Source of the DNA: a virus
UHGV virus genome: UHGV-0351052
Direction: 5' to 3' (one strand)
Length of the DNA: 64,000 nt
The position numbers and the translations under genes are program-made. Below the pieces are notes generated by a model. It worked only from the letters and a program-made list of their open reading frames with translations. It had not been told where the DNA came from and did no database searches. Position 1 is the first letter of the stretch. Each line of letters begins with the position of its first letter. Of the stretch, positions 28,988 through 32,138 are shown in pieces.

Positions 28988-30805
28988 CTATGCATGTTTT
29001 ACTCGTTTTACCATTTCTTTCATTTTACCTAAATTCCATGGAACAACGCTAGGAGTTCCAAGATATCCGCATGTTCTTCTTATGGTATTCATCTTTTTAG
29101 GATCAGTTTCTCCACAAATAGAACAAACAAATCCGTTTTCAGTAGGAGTCATTTCATGGGTGCTTCCGCATGTAAAACACTTATCTACTGGCATATTAAC
29201 ACCAAAATAATCTAAATGCTGTGCAGCATAATCCCATACGGCCTCAAGTCCTTTTAAGTTATTTTTCATATCAGGAAGTTCAACATAAGAAATGTGACCA
29301 CCTGTCGCAATGAAATGATATGGCGCTTCACGAGAAATCTTTTCAAACGGAGTAATATTTTCTTCTACTGAAACATGGAAACTGTTAGTGTACCAACCTT
29401 TATCGGTAACATCTTTTACGCTTCCATATTTTTCTGTATCGAGTTTACAGAAGCGATAACAAAGGTTTTCAGCAGGAGTCGAATATAAACTAAAAGCAAA
29501 TCCAGTTCTTTCAGTCCACTGTTTAAGATGAGCATTCATTTTAGTTAAAATTTCTCGTCCAATATCACGACCGACAAGAATATTCAATTCGTGAATACCA
29601 ATGTATCCTAGGGACACTGAACTTCTACCGTTTTTAAATAACTCAATTATGTCGTCATCAGGTTTAAGACGAACCCCGAATGCACCTTCTTGGTAAAGAA
29701 TAGGAGCAACAGTAGCTTTAACTCCTTTTAAGGAACTAATTCTACACATCAAAGCTTCAAAACACAAATCCATTCGTTCATTGAATAATTCAACAAATTT
29801 CTGTTCATTGAACTGTGTTCCAATATAAGAATCTAACGCGATGCGAGGAAGATTCAGTGTTACAACACCAAGATTATTACGTCCATCAAGAATTTCATTG
29901 CCAGTCGAATCTTTCCATACGCTCAAGAAACTACGGCAACCCATTGGAGAAACAGGAACAGATGAACCGGTGATAGCTTTATTGTTCTTAGCCGAAATGA
30001 TGTCAGGATACATTCTTTTACTTGCACACTCTAGAGCAAGCTGCTTAATATCATAGTTCGGATCGTCTTTATAAAGATTAACACCTTCTTCAACGAACAT
30101 AACAAGCTTAGGGAAAATAGGAGTTATCCCATCGCGGCCAAGACCTTTAATGCGATTTTTCAGAATTGCTTTCTGAATCATTCGTTCAGTCCAGTCAGTT
30201 CCCGTACCAAATGTAATTGTTACAAAAGGCGTTTGTCCGTTTGAACTAAAGAGAGTATTTACTTCATATTCATAAGCTTGGAATGCATCGTATACGTCTT
30301 TTTCTGTTTTAGATTGGGCATAATTCAACGCGTCAGCGATTTGCCATTTTTCTGCGTCCTCAATATGTTTTGCATAGGTGTGTTTAACATAAGGAGAAAG
30401 TACTTTATCTACATTCGCAAAAGTTGTTCCGCCATATTGATGGGAAGCAACCTGCGCAGTAATTTGTGCCATAATTGCAGTAGCAACGCCGATTGATTTA
30501 GGAGTTTCAATCTGTGCATTGCCGAGCTTAAATCCGTTTTCAAGCATTCCTTTTAAATCTACTAAACAGCAATTAGTAAATGGAAGAGCAGGGGAATAAT
30601 CAATATCATGGAAATGGATAATTCCGCTTTCATGCGCTTTCATAATAAAAGACGGGACCATATTTTTGGCAATGTGTTTAGACACAATACCAGCCATAAG
30701 GTCCCGTTGAGTTGGAAAAACACGAGAATCTTTATTAGCATTCTCGTTCAAAAGGTCTTTATTAGTTTTATGAATCAATCCTTCAATTTCTTTTTCAATT
30801 GTCAT
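28988..30805 (-). CDS. nrdD: anaerobic ribonucleoside-triphosphate reductase NrdD, uninterrupted (no intron)
   Basis: 605 aa continuous ORF; C-terminal zinc site CFTCGS...CSICG. Confidence 0.9.
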   Translation of the reverse strand: MTIEKEIEGLIHKTNKDLLNENANKDSRVFPTQRDLMAGIVSKHIAKNMVPSFIMKAHESGIIHFHDIDYSPALPFTNCCLVDLKGMLENGFKLGNAQIETPKSIGVATAIMAQITAQVASHQYGGTTFANVDKVLSPYVKHTYAKHIEDAEKWQIADALNYAQSKTEKDVYDAFQAYEYEVNTLFSSNGQTPFVTITFGTGTDWTERMIQKAILKNRIKGLGRDGITPIFPKLVMFVEEGVNLYKDDPNYDIKQLALECASKRMYPDIISAKNNKAITGSSVPVSPMGCRSFLSVWKDSTGNEILDGRNNLGVVTLNLPRIALDSYIGTQFNEQKFVELFNERMDLCFEALMCRISSLKGVKATVAPILYQEGAFGVRLKPDDDIIELFKNGRSSVSLGYIGIHELNILVGRDIGREILTKMNAHLKQWTERTGFAFSLYSTPAENLCYRFCKLDTEKYGSVKDVTDKGWYTNSFHVSVEENITPFEKISREAPYHFIATGGHISYVELPDMKNNLKGLEAVWDYAAQHLDYFGVNMPVDKCFTCGSTHEMTPTENGFVCSICGETDPKKMNTIRRTCGYLGTPSVVPWNLGKMKEMVKRVKHA

Positions 30806-31275
30806 TTTAAACTCTTTCTAAGCTGCTTCTTAAATGAAGCTATTAATTGTGTTTTGGTGTCAGATTCATTATATTCAAATCCTCTTTGAAGCATCTCAGC
30901 CATCATTTCCTCTTTTCCTAAACGAGAAAATTCCTTTGATTTATCTCCAACAAAGTTAGGGTGAATATTATTTTGGGTGTAATCGGATTTTAAATAAGTA
31001 AGTAAATTTTCTAACCATTCAAGATAATCAACACCTTGTCCCTTTAAGCCAGAACGATTAAATTTGTGCTTCATTTGACCTTCTGCGGCATTGCAGAGAT
31101 TACAAAGCAATCCACGCACCTTTCCTGCTTTTGGTCCATTTAATTCATGGTCATGGTCGAGGTGATTAGCTTGAACATCAGGATTTAATTCTCGTTGGCA
31201 AATTAAGCATTTACCGTTTTGTGCATTATAAAATTTCTGTTTTTCTTCTTTGTATAATTTGCCAGTCAATAACAT
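30802..31275 (-). CDS. 49: endonuclease VII (Holliday junction resolvase) gp49
   Basis: 157 aa essentially identical to remembered T4 endo VII. Confidence 0.85.
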   Translation of the reverse strand: MLLTGKLYKEEKQKFYNAQNGKCLICQRELNPDVQANHLDHDHELNGPKAGKVRGLLCNLCNAAEGQMKHKFNRSGLKGQGVDYLEWLENLLTYLKSDYTQNNIHPNFVGDKSKEFSRLGKEEMMAEMLQRGFEYNESDTKTQLIASFKKQLRKSLK

Positions 31276-31320
31276 AATAAAACCCTTACCTTAAATAGAT
31301 AAGGGTATTTATTATTTTTA

Positions 31321-31494
31321 AGTATTGTAAAACATTCGATGCAATCGTTTATACTGTCGAATCATCTTTTTAGTAGGACGAGAATAGGTTCCTACGCAAG
31401 TGGTCATATGAGGGTCCGTAGAATGTCCTTTAATAAAAAGTTTCCAAACCTTACCGCCATTTAACTTTTCAGTATAAACCAATTCGGTTTTCAT
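31321..31494 (-). CDS. hypothetical small protein (58 aa, not in ORF track) whose 3-prime end duplicates the 3-prime end of pin
   Basis: Hand-translated MKTELVYTEKLNGGKVWKLFIKGHSTDPHMTTCVGTYSRPTKKMIRQYKRLHRMFYNT. Confidence 0.35.
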
Positions 31495-31530
31495 TAAAAT
31501 GTCCTGTCAGAAAAAGAATTTTGAGTTTTT

Positions 31531-32016
31531 TCAAGTATTGTAAAACATTTGATTCAATCGCTTATATTGCCGAATCTTTTGGTCAGAAAAAGAAATTTGA
31601 TTTTCAAGCCATTCAATGTATTCTGCAGCAGCTTGCATCAGGTTACCTTCATAGCCATCGTTATTTTCTTGCGCAGCTAATTTAGCTAATGCGTATGAAA
31701 TACGTTCACCTTGAAAAGAGGCTTTAGGCTTCTGAACAACTTGATTAGTTCTCTCTACAACTTCTTCAATTTCGCCATTTTCAACGGATTCAGTATTCCA
31801 TAAGCACCAATACGTAATTGGCTTATCATAGATATTAATAATCTTTCCGTCGGAAAGTTCAATTTCAATAATTCCAGTATCAGGTTCTATATCATCTTCA
31901 CATTCTTTTGCAAGTTCACGAACTTTAAAGACAGTACCTGCGCTAAGTTCCGGCCAGTAATTACACAGCCCTGTATCAGCACGATTAATTCTAAACCACT
32001 TATCTACTGTAATCAT
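31531..32016 (-). CDS. pin: Pin-like protein (inhibitor of host Lon protease)
   Basis: Start at internal Met gives 161 aa, the T4 Pin length; position downstream of 49. Confidence 0.55.
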   Translation of the reverse strand: MITVDKWFRINRADTGLCNYWPELSAGTVFKVRELAKECEDDIEPDTGIIEIELSDGKIINIYDKPITYWCLWNTESVENGEIEEVVERTNQVVQKPKASFQGERISYALAKLAAQENNDGYEGNLMQAAAEYIEWLENQISFSDQKIRQYKRLNQMFYNT

Positions 32017-32138
32017 GTTCCATCTCCATATCAATTAAGTCATTTATCGTTGGTTCATTATATACTGTTTCTTCATCAGTGTAAACCGGTTCTTCCGGCT
32101 CTGGCTCTACAGTTTCCCATCTAGCCGCCCACCAAGGT

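Follow-up and report, generated by a model that had tools for sequence, protein, structure and literature searches.

How did one short coding sequence come to form the 3′ end of two neighboring genes in a T4-like phage, and which of the two genes supplied it? We addressed this question in virus genome UHGV-0351052, represented here by a stretch of 64,000 nt (hereafter the window). The window belongs to a Tequatrovirus whose nearest relative is RB32. When the 901 nt from 31200 to 32100 were used as a query, 701 phage records matched at the megablast level, and the top matches, at 98%, were vB_EcoM-PM105, RB33, and RB32. All the genes of this neighborhood lie on the minus strand, and the features to which we refer below are the following:

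28988-30805, minus strand: nrdD
30802-31275, minus strand: gene 49 (endonuclease VII)
31282-31306, minus strand: hairpin with a 10-bp stem and a T-run, immediately before the start codon of gene 49
31318-31494, minus strand: small gene of 58 aa, DUF7279 / PHROG 3272 (= RB32ORF078c)
31320-31363, minus strand: D1a, the native copy, at the 3′ end of the DUF7279 gene (codons 45-58 and the first base of its TAA stop)
31495-31528, minus strand: non-coding relic of the original 3′ end of pin, made up of D3a (31506-31528) and a remnant of ...SFSDR(A/T)F-TAA
31502-31505, minus strand: AGGA Shine-Dalgarno sequence, 7 nt before the ATG of the small gene and within the relic
31531-32016, minus strand: pin, 161 aa when counted from the ATG that all annotated orthologs use
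31533-31576, minus strand: D1b, the captured copy (pin codons 148-161 and the first base of its TGA stop)
31582-31604, minus strand: D3b, native pin coding sequence (...ENQISFSD) right before the fusion point, as aligned with JEP6, T4, and T6
beyond pin, minus strand: 49.1 and further small genes, up to nrdC

Direct repeats between pin and gene 49

The original prediction, made from the letters of the sequence, described a pair of near-identical direct repeats of about 45 bp, and these are real, with coordinates that differ from those first given by 1-2 nt. D1a and D1b are identical at 39 of 44 positions (88.6%), share a longest perfect block of 17 nt and are spaced 213 nt from start to start. 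This is the top 44-mer direct repeat within 1 kb across the whole window, and no such repeat in five mononucleotide-shuffled versions of it exceeded 30/44. The AT-rich sequences that follow the stop codons (31301-31319 and 31514-31532) were left out of the repeat; if they are included, its length grows to 63 nt and its identity falls to 81%. Each copy forms the 3′ end of a minus-strand ORF, as had been proposed, and the C-termini quoted for the two were recovered, the 58-aa ORF ending in ...MIRQYKRLHRMFYNT and the window pin in ...KIRQYKRLNQMFYNT. At the protein level, BLASTP aligned the tails of the small protein and Pin with 12/18 identical residues (E 2e-7). Residue 147 of Pin is of DUF7279 origin too, but falls just outside D1b. 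Convergence of the two tails was considered and excluded by a codon-by-codon alignment, which revealed nucleotide identity at synonymous sites.

The anatomy of the locus is richer than the single repeat that had been described, since a repeat search found a second direct repeat, D3 (31506-31528 vs 31582-31604), with 21/23 identical positions and a spacing of 76 nt, and since the relic of the pin end had also been missed. Each D3 copy lies just upstream, in gene sense, of a D1 copy. The order in this sense is pin, D3b, 6 nt, D1b with its stop, a run of A's and D3a; after D3a come AGGACATTTTA, the ATG of the small gene and its coding sequence, D1a with its stop, the hairpin and gene 49. In the relic the sequence is GAC AGG ACA TTT TAA(TG), where the live pin end of phage JEP6 has GAC CGA GCA TTT TAA(TG).

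The hairpin before gene 49 lies outside the repeat and forms the right-hand boundary of every haplotype described below. We take it to be the counterpart of the T4 gene 49 hairpin that masks the ribosome-binding site in early transcripts (Barth et al. 1988). It was kept in every Tevenvirinae locus that we read. On the minus strand of the window, TAATAAATA is found just upstream of it, at about 31307-31316, and TTTTATTATG follows it and ends at the gene 49 start codon; in the Mosigvirus-like phage HY126 an exact TATAAATA late-promoter motif immediately precedes it. At the other side of the locus, a strong sigma-70-like promoter match (TTTACA, 17 nt, TATAAT; 11/12) sits at 32057-32085 on the minus strand, within 49.1 and about 40 nt upstream of the pin start. 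Further downstream, nrdD is a single unbroken ORF of 605 aa in the window; the T4 reference record joins this gene from two pieces, which flank an intron encoding a homing endonuclease.

Source of the Pin tail

To Pfam, the window Pin is a member of PF10465 (Inhibitor_I24/PinA; 164.1 bits, cutoff 27), with a match that covers residues 4-141 of 161, and to PHROG it is a member of family 2167 ("inhibitor of host Lon protease"), with a match over residues 1-146 of 161. Neither family model extends past residue 141-146, which makes the tail foreign to Pin. The 58-aa ORF, in turn, matches Pfam PF23945 (DUF7279) over residues 7-56 with 62.7 bits (cutoff 24.5) and PHROG 3272 with an E-value of 3e-34, and the boundaries of these matches place the tail within DUF7279 and beyond both Pin matches. 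Judged by sequence, the window pin is thus a Lon-protease inhibitor family protein (residues 1-146) that carries a DUF7279 tail (residues 147-161).

In Tequatro-, Dhaka-, Gapriver-, and Mosigvirus-like phages alike, homologs of the small gene (RB32ORF078c / RB69ORF087c-like) occupy the same site, directly upstream of gene 49. The gene is intact in these four Tevenvirinae genera, so that its conservation, which had been in question, holds; it is absent from the T4-type and ECP2301-type loci. The family is nevertheless very narrow, with 10 clusters and 9 representatives, and a word-indexed search together with an exhaustive profile search added up to a handful of relatives. A comparison of the small protein with IMG/VR gave 6 loci only, a number insufficient for an analysis of populations, and these served as outgroup contexts. 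Weak matches to proteins of 500-1000 aa (E 1e-6 to 1e-3) were set aside; they are short and spread over multiple stretches. Every DUF7279 member has the tail, including those of Dhakavirus, Gaprivervirus, and Mosigvirus-like phages and an upstream Mosigvirus paralog. The invariant core of the family is RPTK..IR..KR.HR.F, and the tail is its most conserved segment. An AlphaFold (AF2) model of moderate confidence (pLDDT 81.6 for the best model, about 53 for the other four) has a beta-beta-beta-alpha fold, in which the tail is the predicted C-terminal helix (residues 42-56). Foldseek retrieved nothing from the PDB for this model at E < 0.2; among its weak matches were several dsRNA-binding domains, which we regard as a lead only. 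A literature search on DUF7279 gave no paper.

The ends of natural Pins complete the picture. The native end of the family is ...FSDxAF followed by the stop, and the 148-aa alleles of Tequatrovirus end in SFSDRAF. Pins that are about 45% identical end in FSSKSF, FNAKSF, or FSDRGF, the separate Pin-C ORFs of Dhakavirus and Gaprivervirus end in FSDEAF or FSDEVF, and the Pins of Mosigvirus terminate even earlier than the native end. Tailless Pins occur in about 28% of Tequatrovirus genomes (143), and in the other genera all the Pins seen lack the tail, except for a single independent fusion (P0038, described below).

Taken on its position inside the Pfam match, its invariance in the family and its place as the predicted C-terminal helix, the tail is native to DUF7279, and the transfer, as read from these sequences, ran from the neighbor to pin. 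The original prediction was right that a C-terminal module had been shuffled between pin and its neighbor, but it had the 3′ end of pin duplicated into the small ORF, which is the reverse of what we found. That the tail could be native to pin, with a copy of the pin end added to the small ORF, would agree with the homology of the two tails at the DNA level and with the RB32 annotation, which calls the small ORF "similar to ... pin". It is, however, very improbable, given that the Pin models end before the tail, that the Pins of other genera and of the 143 Tequatrovirus genomes do without it, and that DUF7279 members carry it even in genera with a tailless Pin and in the Mosigvirus upstream paralog. 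The resemblance itself was thus already noticed by the RB32 annotators; we found no published account of its origin.

T4 PinA binds Lon, escapes degradation by Lon and blocks the degradation of substrates (PMC8835725). The window Pin is 91-96% identical to the Pins of T4 and T6, equal to them in length and provided with the same fused tail; nothing in the protein itself sets it apart, and from this identity to T4-type Pin we infer that it binds and inhibits Lon. We found no solved PinA structure, and a full-text literature search on PinA and Lon, with limited reading, returned no study of the C-terminal tail. An AF2 model of Pin was poor (pLDDT 65.6); in it the tail prolongs the C-terminal helix. 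What is new here is that residues 147-161 of the reference T4 PinA lie outside the Pin family and derive, as far as the comparison of sequences can tell, from the neighboring gene.

The two copies of the tail have evolved differently. Among the Tequatrovirus copies read here, the tail of the small gene has 0 non-synonymous and 2 synonymous differences, and the captured tail of pin has 4 non-synonymous (R/Q, M/K, R/Q, H/N) and 1 synonymous differences, together with a fixed R-to-Q change (HRMFYNT to HQMFYNT). Small as these numbers are, the pattern fits constraint on the donor and relaxed or altered constraint on the captured copy. Additionally, in the window type three clustered substitutions in the relic create the AGGA, where the JEP6 type has CGAGCA, and this Shine-Dalgarno sequence arises in exactly the haplotype that lacks the TAATG coupling between pin and the small gene. 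The gain of AGGA and the substitution pattern of the tail suggest that the small gene is still under selection.

Haplotypes, junctions, and the history of the locus

Four arrangements were found among close relatives:

Window/RB32 type: fused pin, relic of the old pin 3′ end, intact DUF7279 gene
T4/T6 type: 161-aa pin, then directly the hairpin and gene 49; locus 213-214 nt shorter than in the window
JEP6 type: 148-aa Pin ending in ...EWLETQISFSDRAF, whose TAA stop overlaps the ATG of the small gene (TAATG); locus 76-77 nt shorter than in the window
ECP2301 type: 148-aa Pin, then directly the hairpin

In the JEP6 type the small gene has 58 codons and its product ends in ...MIRQYKRLHRMFYNT, as in the window. 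To estimate how common each arrangement is, we ran blastn with 40-53-nt queries centered on the diagnostic junctions, with an E-value limit meant to exclude half-matches; the query for the pin stop and TAATG still returned 9 partial matches, which were removed with an 80% coverage filter. The records retrieved were:

D1b/D3a junction (window type): 114 records
Pin fusion junction: 366 records
Junction of the pin stop and TAATG of the small gene: 188 records with a coverage of at least 80%
Short pin followed directly by the hairpin: 69 records

By subtraction, there are about 114 window-type, 252 T4-type, 74 JEP6-type, and 69 ECP2301-type genomes, numbers that rest on BLAST junction queries rather than genome-by-genome inspection. 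As a cross-check, D1 adjoins the hairpin in 438 records, where 440 (114+252+74) were expected, and an evenly spaced sample of the ranked matches gave the same haplotype proportions. The fused pin allele is therefore the one found in about 72% of Tequatrovirus genomes, even beside an intact small gene.

The region that spans 901 nt in the window spans 687 nt in T4 and T6, and the shortfall is exactly the repeat-to-repeat interval. The idea that the repeat could mediate a deletion of some 200 bp is borne out to the extent that T4, T6, and about 250 records, roughly half of the related phages, lack exactly 213 nt; such genomes may have arisen by deletion between the repeats or, just as well, have given rise to the arrangement of the window. 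The fusion itself can be read from a comparison of T4 with JEP6. In JEP6, TCTGACCGA is followed by GCATTTTAATG and, at the far end, by ACTAAAAAG (...AAAAAG) and then ATGATTCGA (ATGATTC...); in T4, TCTGACCGA is joined straight to ATGATTCAG (ATGATTC...), so that the 137 nt from GCATTTTAATG to ACTAAAAAG are missing (274 vs 136-137 nt). Since T4 corresponds to the JEP6 arrangement minus these 137 nt, its Pin is Pin(1-146) fused in frame to residues 44-58 of DUF7279. All the fused pins examined have the junction at the identical position, where T4 retains the ancestral CGA-ATG and RB32, T6, and the window have the derived CAA and/or AAG. Over 402 nt of the pin body in 10 genomes, fused and 148-aa alleles differ at 25-36 positions and fused alleles differ from each other at 7-24, although T4-like phages recombine heavily and local trees or pin-body distances may not mirror history. 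These data point to a single origin of the fusion.

The second junction, between D1b and D3a, falls in a run of A's: the window reads ACTTGAAAAAACTCAAAA, and the parental sequences are ACTTGAAAATAATAA and GGCTTGAAACTCAAA. Comparison with the parents therefore indicates an illegitimate join, with at most the A-run as microhomology. The 114 junctions are all alike (114/114), and 113 reach an identity of at least 95%. Phage L14 was examined as a candidate for a distinct junction and rejected, as it differs only in an expanded run (A11, at L022 519-531, vs A6 in the window) and is otherwise the same; the run is a slippage-prone tract at the site of the join.

The best explanation for these observations, and one that we consider highly probable, is that two events left the repeat as a recombination scar in the variable slot that separates pin from gene 49 in T4-like phages. 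The ancestral state would have been a 148-aa Pin ending in ...SFSDRAF, with its stop overlapping the start of the 58-aa DUF7279 gene (TAATG). A state of this kind persists in about 74 Tequatrovirus genomes and in the IMG/VR contig L015, nearest to Gaprivervirus/Dhakavirus, in which a Pin-C ending in ...FSDKAF overlaps the DUF7279 start through TAATG as in JEP6. In the first event, a single 137-nt deletion would have taken the last two codons and the stop of pin together with DUF7279 codons 1-43, and thereby placed Pin 1-146 in frame with DUF7279 44-58, which gives the 161-aa Pin of T4 and T6. In the second, an illegitimate join in the A-run would have brought the end of a fused pin up against the final ~35 nt of an unfused one, with an intact DUF7279 gene following, possibly by unequal crossover during a mixed infection in which a T4-type genome met one of the ancestral type or, equally, by way of a 213-nt tandem duplication that preceded the 137-nt deletion. 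Either route would yield the window/RB32 arrangement of fused pin, relic and intact DUF7279 gene, with the tail sequence present twice (D1, 44 nt) and the pre-fusion pin sequence present twice as well (D3, 23 nt). Consistent with the scar of a segmental duplication or gene fusion, the copies are more alike than chance allows, unfused relatives exist and the single-copy haplotypes differ by the repeat-to-repeat interval. Homologous recombination would restore the T4 type (minus 213 nt) if it took place between the D1 copies, and the ancestral type (minus 76 nt) if it joined the two copies of D3. The repeats may still be recombining, and both the T4 type (through D1xD1) and the present 148-aa type (through D3xD3) might descend from the window type.

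As to the order of the two events, we lean slightly towards the deletion having come first. The same scar could have formed if a 213-nt tandem duplication was followed by a 137-nt deletion in the first copy, with the T4 type as the product of deletion between the D1 copies, a course that we find somewhat doubtful yet well worth considering. It accounts for the T4 type being the window type minus 213 nt, repeat to repeat. The T4-type phage EC121, whose pin body is the closest to the window (9/402 differences), indicates that the two types are intermixed, and in three T4-type genomes (VEc74, GADU22, and KK4) a pin-type tail is followed by the TAA stop of the small gene; this is the pattern expected from D1xD1 recombination, but the single G-to-A difference could equally be one point change, which makes it a weak pointer. 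Nevertheless, the duplication would require one step more, a non-exhaustive search found no genome with two full copies of the small gene, and just 17 nt of perfect identity are available for the recombination. Moreover, D1b differs from the JEP6 tail at 2 positions and from the D1a of the window at 5, which mildly favors a deletion first and import from another genome. The similarity of the flanks (pin body and gene 49) is compatible with either order.

Two explanations of another nature were weighed against the recombination scar. The 213-nt segment could be a mobile cassette, with the repeats as its target-site duplication; its presence or absence among close relatives would suit a cassette, and so would the contents of the pin-gene 49 slot, which vary by lineage between DUF7279, an unrelated 94-aa ORF and nothing. 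We hold this to be most unlikely, as the sole gene of the segment is the 58-aa DUF7279, with no endonuclease, transposase, or integrase domain, and there are no flanking terminal inverted repeats. The supposed duplication consists of 44 nt of diverged coding sequence, one copy of which is an integral and conserved part of the cassette's own gene, and the other losses of the gene use different junctions (TTTTA-AAT in ECP2301, that of phi25-307 and ACGTTT in L016). Hardly credible is that the repeat is kept for a function at the nucleotide level, for instance as a structured RNA, as a site of regulation or as a signal for translation that serves twice: nothing specific speaks for it beyond the location of both copies at gene ends, a single copy is present in about 320 related genomes and none in 69, and RNA folding between the repeats is no better than in shuffles (z = 0.78). 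Rfam gave no match at the gathering score; the best one, which falls on the gene 49 hairpin, has 26.5 bits where the cutoff is 50.

Significance and further rearrangements of the slot

Deletions and duplications between short direct repeats are known from the classical rII work on T4, as are the hyperplastic regions of T4-like genomes. As with the rII repeats, short direct repeats here bracket a presence/absence polymorphism among small non-essential early genes; unlike them, the D1 copies would stem from an earlier gene fusion and not from pre-existing chance homology. The fusion also resembles composite or "Rosetta-stone" proteins, in which an in-frame deletion likewise joins adjacent, translationally coupled genes, but differs from the usual cases in that only a 15-residue helix of the donor survives and in that the window keeps an intact donor gene as well. 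There is thus no new kind of element at this locus, which is rather a textbook case of how clusters of small genes in T4-like phages are remodeled by deletion, illegitimate joining and repeat-mediated interconversion. The one noteworthy consequence of an otherwise ordinary recombination scar is that the reference PinA is a chimera. All the biochemistry of this phage Lon inhibitor has used the T4 protein, whose last 15 residues are a helix from a different gene. As tailless Pins are common in nature, a comparison of tailed and untailed proteins would be an easy test of the role of the tail in Lon binding, a question that bears on any future structure of a Lon-PinA complex.

The slot has been rearranged in other ways. 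The small gene was lost repeatedly, by differing routes. In ECP2301 it was lost between TTTTAAT and TTTTACAAT, and Mosigvirus phi25-307 does not have it, while the Mosigvirus-like HY126 does. In the Mosigvirus-like Logan contig L016 (1501-1926, P0038), a Mosigvirus-type Pin ends in ...EYLERR-FHRDFYNVY; its final nine residues were captured independently, in frame and at the C-terminus, from the DUF7279 gene that lies downstream of it, through a 6-nt microhomology (ACGTTT). Two Mosigvirus-like ENA contigs, L017 and L018 (1501-2076, P0037), encode a 191-aa protein in which the whole upstream DUF7279 paralog is fused to the N-terminus of Pin through the loss of one T in the stop region, a fusion that should be approached with caution as one of the two contigs has a coverage of about 0.7x. 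In more distant T4-like contigs the slot is either empty or taken by the unrelated 94-aa ORF.

Pin and the DUF7279 protein might be functional partners, with the basic helix (IRQYKRLHRMFYNT) as a transferable module whose capture was selected in the T4 lineage. The two genes are adjacent and coupled, the capture in P0038 and the fusion in P0037 join the same families, and the fused allele predominates at about 72%; even so, we regard this reading as rather unlikely. If it were true, helix IRQYKRLHRMFYNT could be an element that contacts Lon or nucleic acid.

Several other Pin genes have an unusual structure. In Dhakavirus IME281 (L005 892-1367), Pin is divided between two ORFs whose order is swapped: the first, of 57 aa, matches the C-terminal third of Pin (PHROG 9092; PHROG 2167 positions 94-145), the second, of 100 aa, weakly matches the N-terminal half (PHROG 2167 positions 5-75, E 4e-6), and DUF7279 comes after both. 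In Gaprivervirus VR7 (L007 888-1333) the 57-aa Pin-C ORF recurs and is separated from the DUF7279 gene after it by a 90-aa ORF from another family. A 142-aa protein from an ENA contig of 1494 nt (P0030) consists of ~83 Pin residues and a C-terminal part that matches Peptidase_S24 (PF00717), and may be a chimeric contig or another fusion. Finally, the Mosigvirus Pins P0033 and P0035 (180-184 aa), the latter of which represents 142 member sequences, for example, that of Shigella phage ESh15, carry an N-terminal extension of 43 residues (MIGICLLKPIRIF...) that is unlike DUF7279 and may come from another reading frame of the upstream paralog region or from an over-long gene call.
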